Of a stretch of DNA of 64,000 nucleotides, positions 20,931 to 62,209 are shown piece by piece. The notes beneath the pieces were generated by a model. It was not told the origin of the DNA. It worked only from the letters and a program-made list of their open reading frames with translations, and did not search any database. Where the stretch lies: NCBI RefSeq assembly GCF_036588685.1, contig NC_086378.1, positions 85,188,001 through 85,252,000 of the forward strand, given 5' to 3'. Numbering within the stretch: position 1 is the first letter of the stretch; each line of letters begins with the position of its first letter. Source of the stretch: Mytilus trossulus. Lineage: Eukaryota. The translations under genes and the position numbers were made by a program.

Positions 20931-22147
20931 GAAAACAAACAGCCATAATAGGTTAAAACGTCAATCGTAGGGGTACAGCAGTCAACAGCAAAACAAACAG
21001 CCATACTAGGTTAAAACGTCAATCGTAGGGGTACAGCAGTCAACAGCAAAACAAACAGCCATACTAGGTTAAAACGTCAATCGTAGGGGTACAGCAGTCA
21101 ACAGCAAAACAAACAGCCATACTAGGTTAAAACGTCAATCGTAGGGGTACAGCAGTCAACAGCAAAACAAACAGCTATACTAGGTTAAAACGTCAATCGT
21201 AGGGGTACAGCAGTCAACAGCAAAACAAACAGCCATACTAGGTTAAAACGTCAATCGTAGGGGTACAGCAGTCAACAGCAAAACAAACAGCCATACTAGG
21301 TTAAAACGTCAATCGTAGGGGTACAGCAGTCAACAGCAAAACAAACAGCCATACTAGGTTAAAACGTCAATCGTAGGGGTACAGCAGTCAACAGCAAAAC
21401 AAACAGCCATACTAGGTTAAAACGTCAATCGTAGGGGTACAGCAGTCAACAGCAAAACAAACAGCCATACTAGGTTAAAACGTCAATCGTAGGGGTACAG
21501 CAGTCAACAGCAAAACAAACAGCCATACTAGGTTAAAACGTCAATCGTAGGGGTACAGCAGTCAACAACAAAACAAACAGCCATACTAGGTTAAAACGTC
21601 AATCGTAGGGGTACAGCAGTCAACAGCAAAACAAACAGCCATACTAGGTTAAAACGTCAATCGTAGGGGTACAGCAGTCAACAGCAAAACAAACAGCCAT
21701 ACTAGGTCAAAACGTCAATCGTAGGGGTACAGCAGTCAACAGCAAAACAAACAGCCATACTAGGTTAAAACGTCAATCGTAGGGGTACAGCAGTCAACAG
21801 CAAAACAAACAGCCATACTAGGTTAAAACGTCAATCGTAGGGGTACAGCAGTCAACAGCAAAACAAACAGCCATACTAGGTTAAAACGTCAATCGTAGGG
21901 GTACAGCAGTCAACAGCAAAACAAACAGCCATACTAGGTTAAAACGTCAATCGTAGGGGTACAGCAGTCAACAGCAAAACAAACAGCCATACTAGGTTAA
22001 AACGTCAATCTTAGGGTTACAGCAGTCAACAGCAAAACAAACAGCCATACTAGGTTAAAACGTCAATCGTAGGGGTACAGCAGTCAACAGCAAAACAAAC
22101 AGCCATACTAGGTTAAAACGTCAATCTTAGGGTTACAGCAGTCAACA
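20931..22147 (+). repeat. Tandem array of ~21 x 58 bp (minisatellite/nascent satellite)
   Basis: Unit CAAAACAAACAGCCATACTAGGTTAAAACGTCAATCGTAGGGGTACAGCAGTCAACAG, nearly identical copies, no spacers. Confidence 0.97.
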
Positions 22148-43502: not shown

Positions 43503-46500
43503 ATGGGTTCAAGATCAAAAGCGCTTGCCTTATATAAGCAAATACTTCAAGAAAGTAAAAAGTTTACATCGTACAACTATAGGTTAGTTGTGAAATAATT
43601 TGATCCTTTGCCCCTTTTTAATCCGACATTCATTTTATTATTATCTAGATCCATTTTTTCTAGATAATTTCATCGGCTTATCTCTGATGGACAGGTCGAA
43701 TCGGCATATGGTCAATTCGGCACCGATAGAAAAGTCAAATCGTCATTAAGACAAATCAACACCTTGTCATATAGTTACCTTTTTAACAGTTTAATGTCAT
43801 TTCCCCATTTGACTAATCAATTCGATACCATTAAACAGGTCAGGAATAACCACCAATTGGTGGATTATACCTCAATAAACGTATTTACACTTTTGGTATT
43901 TAGCTGAATTTTGTCTCCAAATGACCTTAGATCGCCTCCAAATAACCTTTTGACGTCAGGCAACAATCACTTTTTTATTGTGACGTCAATTTTTTTGAAT
44001 TGTTATGTCAAAGTTTACGGGAAGGTTCCATAGATACTATATACCTTGATTTCATGAAGGCATTTGATACTGTCCCCCACAAACGACTGATTGGAAAATT
44101 AAAGAGTTACGGAATATCAGAAGAGATAATATCATGGGTAACATCATTCCTTAGTGGTAGAAAACAGCAAGTACGTGTCAACGGCAGCTACTCAGAATTC
44201 AAACAAGTAACAAGCGGCATCCCTCAAGGCAGTGTATTGGGTCCAATATTGTTTGTCATCTACATTAATGATCTACCAGAAATGCTTGACTCAGATTGCT
44301 ACATGTTTGCTGACGATACCAAAGTCTTTCGACAAATACAAACAACAGATGATAGTGATGCACTTCAAACAGACTTATCTCATCTAGAATCTTGGTCAAA
44401 TACTTGGTTGCTAAGATTTCACCCAGATAAATGTAAAGTCCTAACAACAGGGAAACAACATGATAACAACCATAAATACAACCTGTGTAATACCACACTA
44501 GAACATGTTGACAAAGAAAAAGACATAGGAGTAACCATTGATAACAAACTAAATTTCGAACAACATATGAATGAAAAAATAAATAAGGCCAATAGTATTA
44601 TGGGACTAATTAGAAGGACATTTACCTGCCTCAATGAGGAAATGTTCTTATTACTTTATAAAGCACTAGCAAGACCAAACCTCGAATATGCCAATGCTAT
44701 ATGGAGCCCATTCAAAGTTAAAGATATAACAGCACTTGAAAATGTTCAAAGGCGAGCAACAAAATTGATACCAACATTGAAAGATCTAGAGTACGAACAA
44801 CGGTTGAAGAAGCTTAAATTACCAACACTTAAATACAGACGAATGAGAGGTGATATGATAGAAGCTTACAAATTAACATCGGGAATATATGACGAAGCGT
44901 TACCTAACCTACTCACATATAACACCACTTCTGCTACTAGAGGACACAACAAAAAACTGACTATCCAAAGATGCAACAAAAACATAAGATCCAACTTCTT
45001 CACACAACGAATTGCACCAATATGGAACAGCTTACCCAGCAGCGTTGTAAATGCACCAACTATTCAGACATTTGAAAGCCGCCTAGATAAATATTGGACA
45101 AATAGTGAAATGAAATATAACTATAGAGCAAAAGCTGACACAGGAACCGGAACCGAAACAAGTCAGCAAATAACTGAAGATCTGAGCATAGTGGAGTGAT
45201 CCAGCGCTCAGTTACAGACTATGTAAGACTATGTAAGACTATGTAAGGGAACCTGTGTGATTCTACATAATGGCGGACAAATTTGCATACAAGTGTAAAT
45301 ACATCTATTTACGTATAATCCACCGATTGACATATAATGGTATAGACCAATTGGTGTATAATTCTTTGTTTTTCAAAACAAATTATTCCACCAAAATGAA
45401 GCATTGTCTTCTTAAAACCATATTATGGTATGAAAACTTGTCAAACTTTCCTAGTTTAGTATAGTAACATAACATATTGCATTTAATCAATAATTGTATT
45501 TGAAGTTTCTTCTATTGTTATCTTGTCAATTCTTGACTGGCAAATTTACCTGTAATTACCTTTCAATGGACATCATTACTGTCTGCAGTCATGTGATCAT
45601 GAGTACAACTCCACAGGTGAATGGGACTCTTTATTAATACTTAACTTTCATTATCAAAAGTCAATTATGGTCAATAGTACAAATGTCTCAACAAAAGAAT
45701 TGTTGTAAACATGCATTCTCAAGAGATGCAGCAGGCTTTGACAAAACAGAAACTTTCGGAGGACTCAATCAGGGTCATGAAATAGGTTGCAGATTGCAAA
45801 AGCATGCTCCTATCTCACATCAGCATTTAATTACAAAAAGTAGCATTATACATCAATTGGTCTATACAAATATACCTCAATTGGTGGATTATACGTCAAT
45901 TGAGGTATAATACACCAATTGGTGGTTATTCCTGACCTGTTAAAAGATTAATATAATTTGTGTTACGAAAATCGTTACCAACCATGTTACCATGATTAAT
46001 ATTGTGTTACGAAAATCGTTACCAACCATGTTACCATCATTGAGAATAGGAAATTATGCCCTAACAGTCAGTCATTAAACAGTCATTTTCAGATAATTTA
46101 AGCGTCAACTTGGCTAAAGTTTCACTGTCATTGGTCAAAATAGTTATATTGTAATTTGATTTTAGGTAACCACAATTCTCAGATCTGCAGTGACATCACA
46201 AGATGTAACTGACCAATCAATGATTAGCATTAGTGGAAGATGCTGTGGAACCGTAGCTCTTAATTAATAGATGGTCCGCGAATAGTAAAAAAATAACATA
46301 AGGACCTAAAATCTACGGTTCCACAGCTAGGAAGATGTTAGTCCAAATAATTATGACGTATTGAAAGGCTATTTTTTTCTTTGACACTTATATTTTTTTA
46401 TAAGAAAAAAAATATGATAGCCTTTCAAGACGTCATAATTATTTGGACTGGGCAGATGTATACTACAATGTATACCAGCTATAAATCATGCCCAAATTCT

Positions 46501-52360: not shown

Positions 52361-55154
52361 TCTCACTTTTGTCGCGGAAAACTAGACATTGGGAAAAGGA
52401 TCCGGCTGTGGCGGCGTTAGCTAACTTTTAAAAATCTTCATATTTTAGAAGGGGGAAGACCTGGATTCTTAATAATTCGTATAGGGATGCCTCTAGTTAG
52501 GAAGTCTTCGTCTGTTACATGCCCATTGTCCTTGACCACATATTCATGGCTACTCAAAAACGAGTTGTATTTTTTGATAATATTTATTTCTATCTTATTA
52601 TGAGTAAAAGGATAACTATATTGGGTATGTGCATACTTTGCCAGGTCCTCATGCCAGTTTTCACTTTACCTCGACATCATTGTATGGATCAGTGAAAAGG
52701 GTTAAGTTTTGATGGTGAAGTCCATATTACAGATACTATAAGCAGAATATGTTGTTGTATGGAATGATTGTAAGGTATACATGTCCAACTGGCAGCTGTC
52801 ATCCGAACTTGACCTCATTTTTATGGATCAGTGGTTATAGTTTTTTTTTGTGTTTTGGTCTGTTTTCCTCTACTGTATGCAATATGTTTACTGCATTTGG
52901 TGTATGGAATGATTGTTAGTAAACATTTTGTATTTGGCCGAAAAATGGAAAGGGATTAATAAAAGTTGCAAACATTATTTCCCAATCCACTATAAAGAAA
53001 TATGTTTAGACTAATGATTGTAAGGTGTACATGTCAGCTGGCTGGTGTCATCTGGCGTTGACCTCATTTTCATGGTTCAGTAGTCAAAGAACAGTTTTTG
53101 AAATTTTGTCGTTTTTCTAACACTATATGCAATAGGTCAACTATATTGGAAATATATTATGATGTGCATGTCAATCTCGCATGTTTTATTTGACCGTGAC
53201 CCAATTTTCACGGTTAATTGCTCATTGTTAAGTATTTGTGTTTTAGTCTGTTTTTTTTTTAAAACTTTATCAATAGGTCAACTATATTTGTTGTATGCAA
53301 TAATTTTAAGCTTTACATGTTTGCCTGCGATGGTTCATCTGACCTTGACCTTATTTTAATGGTTCGTTGACTAATGCTTAGTTTTCTTAGTTAAGTCTGT
53401 TTCTTTGAAACTATAAGCAATATATAGGTCAAATATATTTAGTGTAATGAATAATTTTAAGGTGGTCGTGTATTTATTGTTTGCTTTACATGACCTTGAT
53501 GTCATTTTTTGGACCATGTAAAGCTCATGTGATACTTGTAATAACGCTTTATATTAGATTAAAAAAAAGAAGATGTGGTATGATTGCAACTGAAACTACT
53601 CTCCATAAGAGACCAAAATGACACAGCAATTAACAACTATAGGTCATCATACGGCATTAAGACTACCAACATAATATCATTAATTCTTATAAGAGGCGAG
53701 ACATTTCAGCCCTCTTATTTTTAAATCTGCCTCTTGCCAAAAGAAAGTTTTCTAGAAGCTATAATATTTTCTGTTGGTCATATAGTATATAGTTATGCAA
53801 AGGATCGAGACTTATACATTTCAAATAGATGTTCCAAATACGTCTCGGGTAATCCAGCTTTGTCTGGGATAAGAACAACTTTAGTATTTCGAAAAATTTA
53901 TATTTTGCAAACAGTCAATCAGTAGACAAACACATGATACATAACAGGAGAAAAGATATCCTTAACGATACAAATCACAATTATACTGAACCATATGTGT
54001 ATTTGATCATTTATGTTTCTTTTTTAATATTCGGAATTCCAAAAAATAAAAAAAATGTTGACAACCTGCTGAAAAAACCTAACCAATCGGTTAATAGTTA
54101 TGTATTATGCTATGTATTATTTTGTACTTAATTATTTGTCTATTTTCCGTTTGGTGTTTTAAGCGATTAATTGTCTTAGTCGTTTATCTCGCCCTTTATC
54201 TTGTTTACCTGATGCTTTTTGTTATCTATTATCATGTGTTTCTTTGTCTAACATGTTCTCCTATTTATTTGTATTGTAGTCCTGTTACATTATGTTGTCA
54301 TTTCAATGTTATATTTAACATTGCCATTAAAGTGCGAGGTTTGGCATGCCAGAAAACCAGGTTCAACCCACCATTTGTTCCTTTAAAAATGTCCTGTACC
54401 AAGTCAGGAAGATGGCCATTGTTATATTATTGTTCGTTTCTTTGTGTGTTACATTTTAACGTTGCGTCGTTTGTTTTCTCTTATTTTCTAGTGTATATTC
54501 ACAATGCGATAAGACGTGTCACGGTACTTGTCTATCCCAAATTCATGTATTTTGTTTTGATGTTATATTTGTTATTCTCATGGGAATTTGTCTGATGCTT
54601 GGTCCGTTTCTGTGTGTGTTACGTTTCGGTGTTGTGTCGTTGTTCTTCTCTTATATTTAATGCGTTTCCCTCAGTTTTAGTTTGTAACCCGGATTTGTTT
54701 TTTGTCCATGGATTTTTTGAACAGCGGTATACTACTGTTGCCTTTATTTGAGATATTGAGAAAAGTTTGATAGTGTCTCTACTATAAAATGTAAAAATAA
54801 TACCGCACTTCCAGGAAATTCAAAGCTGAGAGTTCTTGAAAAAATGTCAACATCAAAAACTTAAGCTAATGACCAGTCTAGATGTTCATTATCAAAAATC
54901 CAAACAACAGAATGAATTACATATATTCAATAGTTTTTTTAACATATATTAAATTGAAACATGCCCTTGATTACAACACACGATTATTATACACAATTAC
55001 ATCCAAAGATTTACATCAGCTAAATATCATATTTACAACATGAATATTTTGTACTTGGTTGCGTATCGGAAATTTGATGTTGTTAAATTATTACACCTTT
55101 TGATTACAACATCTTTAAGGAATTAAATGTTATATTTTTGACATTAAGCGTTGG

Positions 55155-55162
55155 TATAAATA
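55155..55162 (+). promoter_or_regulatory. TATA box of the foot-protein-like gene
   Basis: TATAAATA 50 bp upstream of an ATG in strong Kozak context (CACCATGG). Confidence 0.7.
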
Positions 55163-55204
55163 TGCAACTCCTATTGTGTTTCTGTACAAGGTATTTCATT
55201 CACC

Positions 55205-58200
55205 ATGGAAGGACAACACTTGTATCTTTCTCTCCTGTGCCTCGTCGCTGTGTACACTTTTGGTATGTGTTTTTGTTATTCTCATTACATCTTTTCCATC
55301 ATTTTAACGTCATTTGATTTTTTTAAATGTTGCAGTGTACCCTATAACATGTCAGGTTTCTTTTTTACAAATTAAAAGACTGATATGTTAGATGTGTGCC
55401 TTCATCATTATAAGTTTATATGTTTTTTTGTTATCCTTTATTCTATTTTCTTAACAGAAAGAGTCAGATATATTTAGACTTTCTTTGGAATCATAAAAGC
55501 AAGATAATTGTGTAGAAGTTTGTGTGTATACAAATATACAAGTGATATGTATAAAATCAAACATTTGTAAAAAGTAAATTTAGAAGAAAACCGAATATGC
55601 AAGTTCTATTTGTCTACATTTTTAACTTATGTATGTTTGTTTTTGTCCAGACATTGTTTTCAATAAATTGTAATTGTAAACGACTGTCATACAACTGAGC
55701 TATAAAACCAAATAGCTATAAAACCATGTTCCTACATAAAAAATGCCTGTACTAAGTCTAAAATATGACAGCTGTTATCTTTTCGTTTTATTTTGCTATT
55801 TGATTAAAGTCTCCTTTTGATTTTTCGTCGGCGTTCGGCATTTTTGTGATTTTTCTTTTTACCGAATGGATTGAAGCTAACGTTTATGTAGACGACCCGC
55901 GTCTGGCGTACTAAATTATAATCCTGGTACCTTTGATAACTATTAAAACCACTGAGTCGATGCCACTGCTGGTGGACATTTCGTCCCCGAGGTTATCATC
56001 CAGCCCAGTAGTCAACACTTCGGTGTGGTCATTTTTATAAATTTCCTGTTTACAAAACATTGAATTTTTCGAAAAACTAAGGATTTTCTTATCCCAGGCA
56101 TAGATTACCTTAGCCGTATTTGGCACAACTTTTTGGAATTTTGCATCCTTAATGCCCTTTAACTTTGAACTTGTTTGAGTTTATAACTATTTTGATTTGA
56201 GCGTCACTGATGAGTCTTATGTAGACGAAACGCGCGTCTGGCGTGCTAAATTATAATCCTGGTACCTTTGATAACTTTTATCTTGCAAATAGCAGTATAG
56301 AAATACATGTTAAATAAGTGATCTCTAGTTGTTAATTTCCTTGTCATTGTGGTGTCTTGGAGGAGATTTGTCTTATTGGAAATGATATTACATCTTCAAT
56401 TTTTATTAAGTTGCAATGATGTTTTTAAGGACATAAACAGTTGACATTGGTTTGGGATAAAAAGCTAAATAAATGACTTTTTCTGAATAACGAAATTGAT
56501 AAATACTGATATGCATCATTTTTCTTTCTCGATTAAATCGACTTTTTGAAATTACTTGTTCATAAATTAGATCTCGTCAATGTATGTTTAAGTCTCGGCA
56601 ACCAATGTTAAAGTCTCGTCGAACGATGTTTACGTCAACCAACGTTACAAACATGAGATTGGAGCAAATATTCAGTTGATCTTCAGAGAACATGTACATT
56701 TAGAACAATAATAACGGGATTTAAGTTAATAAAAACGCGTTTTAGTAGATAAACTTGTAATAGTTAACCTTTTAAAAGAAATCAATTATATTTTTTTTCA
56801 GCCTCAGCAAATCCGTATAATGTAGCTTCTGCACGTAAGTAATTCTTCTTTTGTCAATTTAAATTGATTTTCAGGTTTGAATTGTGTATTAAGTGAAAAC
56901 AAATTATGCTAAAAAAGAGAGTAAAACAATTGTATACTTCTATAATCACATATCTAATGATAATTAAATTGAGAATGAAAATGGGGAATGTGTCAAAGAG
57001 ACAACAATCCGACTATAGACAACACAACAGCAGAAGGTCACCAACAGGTCTTCAATGTAGCGAGAAATTGGAGCTAGCCCCGAAACAAATATATACTACT
57101 ATATAGTAGTTCAGTGATAATGAACGCCATACTAATTTCCAAACTGTACACAAGAAACTACCATTAAAATAGTACAAGACTTACAAAGGCCAGAGGCTCC
57201 TAACTTGGGACAGACGCAAAAAAGCGACGGGGTTAAACATGTTTATGAGATCTAAACCCTCCCCTATACCTCTATCCAATGTTGAAAAATAAACGCATTT
57301 TAAACGAAGTTATTTATCATTCTAATTGATATCATAGGTGTGACAAGAATTGACTCTAAAATGGACATAAACCGATTGTTTTTGGATGACAGACGTTCAT
57401 GTGTTGCAACGTCTCGAGTAATGTGTCACAGATTAAAATAAACGGTAATTCAAAGACATCATTTCCTGTGATACAATGTCGAAATCATTTTAAAGTGAGG
57501 ATGTTTTTTTTTACCGCTGATGCACATTTGTCATACTGCGTCTGGATTTTGAATCAGTGTTTGGTCGTTTTTTGATTTTATACGGCCTCAACATTTACTA
57601 TAAAAGAAGGGCGAAAGATACCAGAGGGCCAGTCAAACTCATAGATCTAAAATAACCTGACAACGCCATGACTAAAACATAAAAGACAAACAGAAAAATA
57701 AAAGTACACAAAACGCAACATAAAACACGAAAGACTAAACAAAACGAACCCCTCCAACAACTGAAGGTGCATTGATCTCTAGTGCTCCGGAAGGGTAAGT
57801 AGATCCTGTCCCACATATGGCACTCGTCGTGTTGCTTATGTTATTACAAACTGGGTAAATAGTCTAACTCGGTAGATTCGTGGCGAAAAGGGAAGCGGAT
57901 AAAAGTCACTACATAAGAAACATATTCGATATCATCCGTGAAACAGTTATTCCATAACGATCAACCAGCTCGTGATGGCGTCCGTTAAACAAACAAAGGG
58001 ATAATTTCAATTTCACCATTTGAAACTTTTGGTTTGAAAGCTCCCTTGTGAGCAGCAAGCCTCTATCAAGAAATCATGATAGGAAATACAGTCCCTGGAA
58101 TATCGTATCAATTGGAAAATATATACTCTGTATTCAGGCACTGCCGGAGTATTTCTACATACAAATGGAAAGTAATAATTGGGAAGCTGATATCATCTCG

Positions 58201-61200
58201 TTTGTCATTTTTTTTTATCAAAATGTGCTTCTGTTGTATTGACCCTTTAATGGTGTACTGTAACTTAAGGCTCAAGTGAACTCGACATGTTGTGGTACTA
58301 CAATTTTGTTTTACATTGATGTTTGCTGCTGTTATGTGTACGTTAACAAATGAACAACATTTCTCTTTTTTGTTTTGTTTTTTTCGATACACGAAAAAGC
58401 AAACAAATTGTTTCAAAAATATGTAATCAAAAGGGTTATTATGTCCAATAAATTAAATAATATATAGATACACATATCGTTTTTTTTTTAAACAATAATC
58501 TGCCAAACGTCCTGTGAACAATTTTGTTGAACTAAATGATATATCATTACAGGTGCTAGTGCTACAGCCTACAACCCAGGAAAATACAATCCAGGAAATA
58601 ACTACAACCCATCAAAATATGGTAGGTAACATTTGATTATTTGACGTATTATGTGTGGCAGAAAAAAAAATCATCAGGAGTATTGTTAGATAATATCAAT
58701 TGTAAAAGAAAGAAATATCAGCTGGGAATACGGCAGGTTTTTTCTCTCTTATTCTGTTCATAAATAAGGTTTATTATTTTCTCCCTGTTTTTATGGGCTT
58801 CCCTATATTGGATTTTGCATTTTATTTTATTGTGTTAGCAGTATATCAGTATGGTGAACTGTACTGAAACAACTACTGTTAAGTTTACCATGAATATTTG
58901 TTTATTTGTTTATTTGTATGTTTATAGTTAAATAAACACATTTAGATGAATTTGATGTTGACATAGAAATTGCAAACTTCTATTATGTTGACATTTGTAA
59001 AAACAAAAAGGGGCGAAAGATACCAGACATCCGATTGTAGCTCTGGTATCTTTCGCCCCTATTTTACAAATGTTAATATGAGAGTTGTTCGCAATCTCTA
59101 TGACAACATCAAATAGATGTCAAACTCATAGATCGAAAATAACCTGACACAACCATGTGTGAGTTCGTGGTCAAGTGGTTTAGACCGAAGCCTACAGTAC
59201 TGAAGGTCCCGAGTTCGATTCTCATTTGGGGTGCTCAAAATATCAGTACAATGGTAATTTTCACCCTCTCACACACATCTCTGTCTCCTACTTTGACCTG
59301 GAGATCAATCTTCTGATATCTCTCTGGTTTGTCGGTTTCCACCAAGTACCTCGGCTTCCACCATAAGAACAGACTTCCAGGTGTCCTTCGCGCTCCCTTG
59401 GGCGATGTTGGTTGGGGATTGTTCTGGTGGTGGGATAATATTGTAAAGAACTCATTTCCATTAATCCTTATGAAATGTACCTGGATCCGCTGTACCCTTG
59501 CAGTCAATCAAGGGGTGCGTCTAAACAGGCGGAATCTCAAAGTACATACATAGCTAAGTATTTTAAGAGTGTCTGCGATGCTTCATAAAGTATATCGCCT
59601 GTTGATTTACAAATTACTGTTTCCTTATCTAAATCATTTTTAAAACTACCAAGAAAAAAAATTCATATAAAACATTGAGAACTTATGATAAAGAAATGTT
59701 AGTCCAATTGTTCTGTGATACATAATGTATTTACAATTAACTCAGGAACACTTGATACATTAATTTGTTATCAAAGGTACAGGTATTTTAATTTAGTACG
59801 CCAGACGCGCTTTCTGTCTACCTTTCATAATCATTAAAAAAAAAGACCTTTTTGAATGTGACTTATAAACTCCTCCCAAACCGATGAAGCAGAAGTAGCC
59901 GACAGTAAGAATTAGTGATTATCAATTCTCCATCATCACCACTTTATTTTATACTGATCTATTTTGAATTGCAGCCATTCGGAAATTATAAGTTGTCGTA
60001 TGTATCATAAACTAAGAGTAAGAGAATTTACAATAATATGAATTATCTGGGTAATATCAATCTACATTAGAAAATGCCTGTACCAAGTTAGGAATATGAC
60101 AGTTGTTATCCATTCGTTTTCTGTGTTTGGACTTTTGATTTTGCCTATTGATTTTTGATTTTTCTTTTTGAATTTTCCTCGGAGTTTAGTATTTTTGTGT
60201 TTTTACTTTTATCAACAAATACAATACATCTGAAATTACAAATTACACATTTCATTCATATTTAAAAAAAGTATAACTTTCTAAAAGATAGACCAACATT
60301 GAAGAATTTTAGGACAAACAATTACAAAATGAAAATCATAGGGATTTTATCTATATTCTAGTCCATTGATCGGCGGAGTGAAATCTTGAAAGTTGTATTC
60401 AACATATGCATGGTTAATAAGAATAAACAATGTTTTACTATTTGATTTCAGGACCAACGTATCAACCTAAGATGAAATATGCACCTCAGTATGCACCAAA
60501 ACCAGCATACTATCCAACGTACAAACCCAAGACGACATACCCATCTAAGTATGCACCAAAACCAGCATACTATCCAACGTACAAACCTAAGACGACATAC
60601 CCATCTAAGTACGCACCAAAAACAGCATATTATCCAACGTACAAACCTAAGACGACATACCCATCTAAGTATGCACCAAAACCAGCATATTATCCAACGT
60701 ACAAACCTAAGACGACATACCCATCTAAGTACGCACCAAAACCAGCATATTATCCAACGTACAAACCTAAGACGACATACTCATCTAAGTACGCACCAAA
60801 ACCAGCGTATTATCCAACGTACAAACCTGAGGTTAAATACGCACCAAAACCAGCGTATTATCCAGAGTACAAACCTAAGATGAAATATGCGCCTAAGAAA
60901 AACATCTTAAAACTCAATCATGCCAAAACTTCTACGGCAATTTTGAAACATTCGAGCGAACAGACCAAATTACACGCATCAAAAGATTATGCACCATCCA
61001 CATATGATGACTCGTATACAAGTAAATATAACCCTAAGGGAAAGTATGTAAACTTGCACCATGTCAAAACAAAGACGGCAGTATTAAACCACGCAAGCGA
61101 ACTAACAAATTTGAAAGCTTCAAAATCTTACAATCCCTCTAAGAATACATATGCACCTTCATATGGCCATGACGACTCATATAACCCTACTTATGACACA

Positions 61201-62061
61201 AAGGGAAAATATGTAAAACTGCACCATGTTAAAACAAAGACACAGGTATTGAAACATGCCAGCGAATTAACAAATTTGAAAGCTTCAAAATCTTACAATC
61301 CATCTAAGAACGCATATGCACCTGCATATGGCCATGATGACTCGTATCAACCTAATTATGACCCAAAAGGAAAATATGTAAAACTGAACCATCTTAAAAC
61401 AAAGACACAGGTATTGAATCATGCCAGCGAACTAACTAGTTTAAAAGCATCGAAATCTTACAATCTACCTAAGAATGCATATGCACCTTCATACGGCCAT
61501 GACGACTCATATAAACCTAACTACAATAAAAAGGGAAAATATGTAAACTTGCACCATGTTAAAACAAAGACACAAGTATTGAATCATGCCAGCGAATTAA
61601 CAAATTTGAAAGCATCAAAATCTTACAATCCATCTCAAAACGCATATGCACCTGCATATGGCCATGACGACTCGTACCAACCTAACTATGACACAAAAGG
61701 AAAATATGTAAAACTGAACCAACTTAAAACAAAGACACAGGTATTGAATCATGCCAGCGAACTAACTAATTTGAAAGCATCGAAATCTTACAATCCATCT
61801 TATAAAGCATATGCACCTGCATACGGTCATGACGACTCATATAAACCTAACTATAAGAAAAAGGGAAAATATGTAAACTTGCACCATGTTAAAACAAAGA
61901 CACAGGTATTGAATCATGCCAGTGAATTAACGAATTTGAAAGCATCAAAATCGTATGCACCATCAAAAAAGGCATATCCACCAACATATAACGCCCCAAA
62001 ACTGTATGCACCACAATACAAAGCTAAATACCAACCAAACACTTACAACAAATACCAGTGA
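55205..62061 (+). CDS. Mussel foot protein-1-like (polyphenolic byssal/adhesive) secreted repetitive protein, 589 aa
   Basis: Exons 55205-55262, 56802-56834, 58553-58621 and 60452-62061 (all phase 1, GT-AG, 1770 nt). Signal peptide MEGQHLYLSLLCLVAVYTFASA resembles mfp-1 MEGIKLNLCLLC. PKPAYYPTYK/PKTTYPSKYA decapeptides resemble AKPSYPPTYK, followed by six 55-aa His-containing repeats. Confidence 0.85.
55885..56278 (+). mobile_element. Non-LTR retrozyme-like element: ~335-nt unit with terminal redundancy at the hammerhead
   Basis: TTATGTAGACGA..CGCGTCTGGCGT.CTAAATTATAATCCTGGTACCTTTGATAACT directly repeated at ~55885 and ~56217. Predicted cleavage-site Cs at 55903 and 56238. Confidence 0.82.
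56201..56244 (+). ncRNA. Minimal type I hammerhead ribozyme
   Basis: GCGTCA-CTGATGA-GTCT(TATGT)AGAC-GAAA-C(GCGC)GTC-TGGCGT: complete core, 4-bp stem II, short palindromic stem III, GUC cleavage triplet and 6-bp stem I. Confidence 0.88.
57600..58220 (-). mobile_element. Penelope-like element 3' fragment in intron 2 of the foot-protein-like gene
   Basis: DKRDDISFPII coding remnant, and the same 3' tail as 31640-32030 in reverse orientation. Confidence 0.7.
59158..59551 (+). mobile_element. tRNA-derived SINE
   Basis: Pol III A box TGGTCAAGTGG (59168) and B box GAGTTCGATTC (59211) at tRNA spacing, a GC-richer ~390-bp body, and a short TACA-repeat tail. Confidence 0.7.
60491..60885 (+). repeat. 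Coding 60-bp tandem repeat (5 full plus 2 partial units)
   Basis: Encodes YAPKPAYYPTYKPKTTYPSK. Confidence 0.95.
61036..61960 (+). repeat. Coding 165-bp tandem repeat (~6 units)
   Basis: Unit starts at 61036, 61201, 61366, 61531, 61696 and 61861. Confidence 0.95.
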
Positions 62062-62203: not shown

Positions 62204-62209
62204 AATAAA
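62204..62209 (+). terminator. Polyadenylation signal of the foot-protein-like gene
   Basis: AATAAA ~140 bp after the stop codon. Confidence 0.55.

Follow-up and report, generated by a model that had tools for sequence, protein, structure and literature searches.

The window analysed here, a stretch of 64,000 nucleotides from Mytilus trossulus, carries a gene for a repeat-rich protein related to mfp-1 (55205-62061). Its reading frame begins with ATG at 55205, ends with a stop codon at 62059-62061 and codes for a product of 589 amino acids. The gene consists of four GT-AG bounded exons (58, 33, 69 and 1610 nt), all in phase 1 and in one frame (Table 1). Two micro-exons had been proposed in a sequence-only reading of this DNA, and they are found as the internal exons of 33 and 69 nt. 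A 20-nt micro-exon at 55336-55355 was considered and rejected, since it would shift the frame and is covered by 0 contigs. Taking 22 residues as the signal peptide, as assumed from hydrophobicity and mfp-1 homology, the mature chain has 567 residues, 64.7 kDa and pI 9.8. It is rich in Lys (16.6%), Tyr (15.0%) and Pro (11.1%), with 4.1% His, and it contains no Cys past residue 22, as the sequence-only reading had stated.

Table 1. Features of the gene and its upstream region (window positions)
Feature	Position	Strand	Basis
Proximal promoter and 5' leader, homologous to those of mfp-1	55024..55204	+	alignment, shuffles
22-nt TATA-containing motif	55137-55158	+	
TATA box	55155-55160	+	
Exon 1, coding part (58 nt, phase 1, most of signal peptide)	55205..55262	+	donor visible in contigs; length and phase as in mfp-1 exon 1
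Exon 2 (33 nt)	56802..56834	+	donor seen as junction 56834-58553, in two of four runs
Exon 3 (69 nt), Asn/Tyr/Pro-rich	58553..58621	+	acceptor context common to mfp-1 exon 3
Exon 4 (1610 nt through stop codon), carries all repeats	60452..62061	+	
11 alternating Tyr/Lys/Pro decapeptides, in mfp-1 decapeptide register	60496..60825	+	
Degenerate first repeat, core 51% identical to reference repeat, short spacer	60895..61035	+	
Five full 55-aa repeats, each a conserved core and a spacer with two Tyr-x-x-x-Tyr motifs	61036..61860	+	
Conserved cores of the five full repeats	61042-61131, 61207-61296, 61372-61461, 61537-61626, 61702-61791	+	
Last core (61867-61956) and C-terminal mfp-1-like Tyr/Lys/Pro tail	61861..62058	+	
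Candidate polyadenylation signal	62204..62209	+	

Elsewhere in the window, the minus strand at 335-30000 carries several genes or gene fragments in tandem that have apextrin C-terminal (ApeC) domains (Pfam PF16977 in all three exons tested). Exons of a mitochondrial-type phenylalanyl-tRNA synthetase (PF01409, PF03147; 35549-41187, minus strand) form a head-to-head pair with a LYR-motif gene (PF05347; 47498-47797, plus strand). Further, a LINE-type reverse transcriptase fragment (PF00078) is located at 43946-45199, and a 58-nt unit is repeated 21 times in tandem at 20932-22147, with copies 98% alike.

Search with a single repeat retrieved 22 matches, all of them within three open frames on contig C6: the focal gene and two paralogs, P2 and P3, both on the minus strand and within 50 kb of it. 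P2 (C6:85260229-85266700, ATG at 85266623) is intact and codes for 593 aa. In P3 (ATG at 85296292), an element of 10,629 nt (C6:85283376-85294004) interrupts exon 3; it has perfect terminal inverted repeats of 24 nt and is accompanied by a TA target duplication. As no open frame of at least 120 aa is found inside, the element is probably non-autonomous. Neither a further copy nor another foot-protein-like frame was detected across 391 kb around the cluster. Repeats are 86-94% identical, both within and between the three genes, and the 3' UTR of the focal gene is kept in both paralogs. The promoter and first exon of P2, however, are only 66-68% identical to those of the focal gene and P3. The signal exon and promoter of P2 are about as distant from the focal gene as those of mfp-1, but the last exon is ~94% identical, which is a sign of gene conversion. 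The cluster thus appears to go back to an old duplication, after which exon 4 was homogenised.

Canonical mfp-1 of this genome is located on a separate contig, C4 (48820376-48837664), where its marker stretch measures 168 nt, a length of the Mytilus trossulus type. All 27 matches to the pattern of the canonical decapeptide array fall on C4, with 0 in the control. The focal gene is therefore not mfp-1 itself: it occupies another locus and has no canonical array. An uninterrupted frame of 289 aa lies 20 kb downstream of mfp-1 (C4:48857307-48858173); it resembles what we take to be an rRNA methyltransferase and may be a retrocopy.

The mfp-1 link claimed in the sequence-only reading is right, and stronger than it first appeared, since promoter, exon plan and decapeptide register are all common to both genes. 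Coding exons of mfp-1 measure 58, 48, 48 nt and long, all in phase 1, against 58, 33, 69 nt and long in the focal gene. The mfp-1-like signal and N-terminus noticed from the sequence correspond to a homologous signal exon of identical length and phase. Alignment of the non-coding stretch from -150 to -1 with that of mfp-1 scores 101, as compared to a maximum of 49 in shuffles (reached in 0 of 1000), and from -260 to +58 the focal gene is 73% identical to mfp-1 and 68% to P2. The 22-nt motif occurs in exact form at three genome sites only, in mfp-1, the focal gene and P3; three two-mismatch matches and two control matches were also obtained. Since this pattern was drawn from two of the three genes, the search shows specificity, not independence. 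Six two-mismatch matches of the promoter and exon-3 patterns were inspected and are not further paralogs. The main decapeptide agrees with the majority mfp-1 unit of the genome in 21 of 30 nucleotides and 6 of 10 residues, both Tyr positions being retained, and with 7 of 10 residues of the published mfp-1 consensus, including Tyr at 5 and 9 (PMC9999432; here and below, papers are cited for the parts of their text that were available). The alternate unit matches the majority unit in 16 of 30 nucleotides. Taken on sequence comparison, it is practically certain that the focal gene is a paralog of mfp-1.

Beyond -150, similarity to the mfp-1 promoter is weak (reached by 7 of 500 shuffles), and none is left in the 3' UTR (224 of 300 shuffles reach it); regulation may therefore have diverged. 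After such divergence, the protein could be byssal and still serve at another place than mfp-1, such as plaque scaffold, stem or root, or larval and post-larval byssus, which we consider rather unlikely. The fading upstream similarity, the different contig and the replacement of two-thirds of the chain would all suit this possibility, and plaque vesicles are known to contain proteins that carry His (PMC13022425). On the contrary, the proximal promoter is about 67-73% identical to that of mfp-1 across ~240 nt, which favours cell-type control shared with mfp-1, and His is low for a plaque scaffold protein.

Transcript contigs were taken from 7 of 24 listed runs, whose RNA type was guessed and whose sequence shares were all <=0.15. 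Read depth was left unused as expression measure in the focal gene because its introns contain interspersed repeats. Pieces of exon 4 are present in contigs of 4 of 4 runs, representing four organisms, with between 2 differences in 296 nt and 34 in 408 nt. The closest contig, from run X1, differs from the focal gene at 2 of 296 nt, from P2 at 17, and from P3 at 8 plus a 15-nt gap. In contigs of two of the four runs (X1, organism A; X2, organism B), introns 2 and 3 are spliced out. Organism B has contigs with a P3-like 5' end that are spliced through exon 3. In three of four runs, the match to exon 1 ends exactly at 55262 and continues into exon-2 sequence; run X3 has no contig on exon 1. These exon 1-exon 2 contigs display six extra bases and five differences typical of P3. 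Intron 1 is thus demonstrated for a P3-like gene, and we infer it for the focal gene. The exon 2 acceptor was placed from its AG and by comparison with P2. All spliced contigs come from runs of several studies with tissue unlabelled, and DOPA-type proteins are known outside the foot. Both points would be compatible with an mfp-1 duplicate redeployed to the quinone-tanned periostracum or ligament at the mantle edge. Conservation of the mfp-1 promoter and of the decapeptides speaks against such a non-byssal role, which we regard as quite improbable.

Further, we examined the organization of exon 4. Alternating decapeptides, 55-aa repeats and a hybrid architecture uniting them in one chain had all been described from the sequence, and all are borne out. 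The 11 divergent decapeptides make up ~19% of the mature chain, and two looser ones follow them up to 60894. Tandem Repeats Finder (TRF) reports a period of 165 nt (55 aa) in 5.8 copies, with a score of 1336. In total, the protein has seven cores, each of 29-30 aa. Tyr-x-x-x-Tyr motifs number 16 in repeats and tail, as compared to 4.9 in shuffles (0 of 2000 shuffles reach it). Since the last repeat has simple mfp-1-type units at the corresponding spacer positions, the Tyr spacers are likely to derive from mfp-1 decapeptides, each 55-mer representing a new core placed between two eroded decapeptides. An internal sub-repeat of 9-10 residues in the core is not apparent in the DNA (self-match 22-32%).

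The core is under purifying selection. For 16 full repeats of the three paralogs, degenerate and last repeats excluded, the core has a pN/pS of 0.13 and the spacer one of 0.39; the pairs compared are non-independent, and conversion homogenises the repeats. Of the core histidines, His22 is kept in 20 of 20 repeat rows, His12 in 19 and His11 in 17; a spacer His is present in 14 of 20. The gene is a real, intact and transcribed mfp-1 paralog that carries a new conserved repeat module. In terms of hydropathy, no block is less hydrophilic than the core (GRAVY -0.63, against -1.44 and -1.92 for the Tyr blocks). In a charge-hydropathy comparison, every block falls into the disordered range, with the core just past the boundary.

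The term "His blocks", applied to these repeats in the sequence-only reading, is too strong. His accounts for 23 of 567 residues overall and for 6.6% of the repeat region, with three per core and at most three in any 20 residues; the 9-23 mol% of the mfp-4/mfp-12 class is not reached. Likewise, the alternating polar/non-polar segment does not stand out: in four windows, 15-83% of 5000 shuffles reach the observed two-residue alternation. The helical moment of the core is not significant either. It was also suggested that the cores form beta-sheets or cross-beta stacks joined by His-metal links. In the N-terminal half of the core, Chou-Fasman propensity is indeed higher for beta (1.11-1.18) than for helix (0.94-1.04), and seven near-identical cores would suit in-register stacking. 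However, the clearest periodicity is of three residues and lies in the C-terminal half (p 0.0025-0.04, in a window picked post hoc), and together with the alternation test it gives beta-sheet assembly no support. AlphaFold2 yields no confident fold, with pLDDT of 34.5 from single sequence and 30.2 from a 16-row alignment. Both low-confidence models contain a helix in each core, placing helix and not strand in its C-terminal half, a signal too weak for fold assignment. Beta-sheet cores are thus improbable, and the His-rich/beta-sheet description is best abandoned or kept as a hypothesis only.

Comparison with mfp-1 extends to the protein level. Besides the signal exon, the four-exon phase-1 plan, the proximal promoter and the decapeptide register, both share a basic chain without Cys (for mature mfp-1, PMC7018715), Tyr-x-x-x-Tyr motifs and a similar C-terminal tail. 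In contrast, the focal protein has 0 exact canonical decapeptides, while mfp-1 of the same genome has 17. Decapeptides cover about one fifth of the focal chain, whereas mfp-1 is mostly a long canonical array, and the seven conserved cores are absent from mfp-1. The two proteins also differ in His (4.1% and 0.4%), Pro (11% and 21%) and length (589 and 914 aa).

Other byssal proteins resemble the focal one in single respects. Mefp-12/mcfp-12 are likewise secreted and basic, with conserved His in a possibly helical segment, and a pH/Zn trigger as in mefp-12 is conceivable by functional analogy. Mefp-12, however, contains Zn-finger-like domains and 9.1% His, and a helix of 129 aa with ~18% His is predicted for it with confidence; none of these features is seen in the focal protein, and the available text reports no mfp-1 decapeptides for mefp-12 (PMC13022425). 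Mfp-4 also has tandem repeats with His and aliphatic residues, but its composition (23% His, 2.2% Tyr) and an acidic block at the C-terminus (PMC7018726) set it apart from the focal protein, which has 4% His, 15% Tyr and no such block. The engineered HRfp-1 joins 12 mfp-1 decapeptides to mfp-4 His domains (PMC12817120), which recalls the dozen or so DOPA decapeptides and His-bearing segments of the focal protein. Unlike the natural protein, in which cores are interleaved with Tyr spacers, HRfp-1 is artificial and much richer in His.

We also considered that byssus transcriptomes or proteomes may already list the protein by a different name, which would be compatible with all other readings. 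Protein homolog search with exon 4 and two repeats gave no match. A control with the non-repetitive part of mfp-1 gave none either, so that these blanks are uninformative on novelty. Exact-sequence look-up of the focal protein found no match, and a protein atlas contained the exon-4 frame itself, possibly from the same genome, with no usable matches. In a profile search of 1.84 billion representatives, two matches at E<=0.001 were repeat-rich, microbial or phage-like and spanned 16-30 positions; they were taken as chance. Pfam matches (LHH, M1E1E6-like) and PDB matches to designed SAKe propellers were set aside, as no single stretch passed, and 90 pattern matches in a metagenome scan left 0 confirmed. 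Named foot proteins were compared through their descriptions in PMC7018726, which treats Mcfp10-18 only briefly; by length, composition and motifs, none of Mcfp1-18, Mefp1-2, Mgfp1/3 and Mufp2/3/6 fits as described there. The available text of the papers covered (among them PMC7018726, PMC9999432, PMC5549309, PMC12607631, PMC13198611, PMC7971044, PMC11667028 and PMC12817120) describes no such mfp-1 paralog. Full-text search had no match for four of five motifs and only unrelated titles for the fifth, and motif search in the supplements of PMC11667028, PMC12607631 and PMC7018726 found nothing relevant. On the other side, DeMartini 2017, Qin 2016 and Rivard 2025 lie outside this comparison and could list the protein, and PMC11667028 lists a partial "fp-1" transcript, the second of that name, for which there are two foot peptides. 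On balance, an existing name seems unlikely, yet a serious possibility. Automated genome annotations probably carry the gene under a generic mfp-1-like name.

Judged from sequence features, a role in foot or byssus is probable, and the anchoring threads likely contain the protein as an additional building block that is apparently uncharacterised so far. Somewhat better than even, in our estimate, is a multiblock secreted foot protein in which DOPA/Lys linkers alternate with less hydrophilic, His-bearing stickers and which acts as a co-component of the cuticle. The cuticle in particular, with the cuticle gland as its source, is a plausible site that we place just short of even. The protein would be secreted from the foot together with mfp-1, and Tyr of its decapeptides and spacers would be converted to DOPA, as in mfp-1, which could bind Fe/V or form quinone crosslinks. 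The seven less hydrophilic cores might act as stickers that associate on the shift from acidic vesicle to seawater pH, aided by His deprotonation and possibly by Zn/Cu binding. In this manner, the protein would tune phase separation and coating stiffness rather than form the bulk of the coating.

Such a mechanism has precedents. The single less hydrophilic N-terminal block of mfp-1 has been proposed to drive microphase separation in granules (PMC7018715), and pH/Zn-dependent His assembly was shown for mefp-12 (PMC13022425). Seven blocks with pH-sensitive His, as compared to one block in mfp-1, favour a cuticle co-component that adds association sites. A His-metal contribution is tentative: one His is invariant in 20 of 20 repeats and His content is 10-fold above mfp-1, but it is well below the 9.1% of mefp-12 and the 23% of Mcfp4. 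A bolder view, which we hold to be unlikely, is that the three-gene cluster represents a second mfp-1 branch of natural DOPA+His multiblock proteins, in which the 30-residue module serves as pH/metal-switched sticker organising cuticle granules. The module would then have been inserted between mfp-1 decapeptides and subsequently amplified, and a second network of crosslinks, based on His, would exist in the cuticle alongside DOPA-Fe/V.

The cuticle of the byssus serves as a model for coatings that are both hard and extensible, and models of it comprise mfp-1 together with Cys-rich mfp-16 to -19 (PMC7018715). To these models, a paralog family that has the mfp-1 promoter together with a new conserved module would contribute a further component. 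It would show how a repeat protein acquires a new block, by insertion between decapeptides and later amplification, and would provide a natural counterpart to engineered DOPA/His hybrids.
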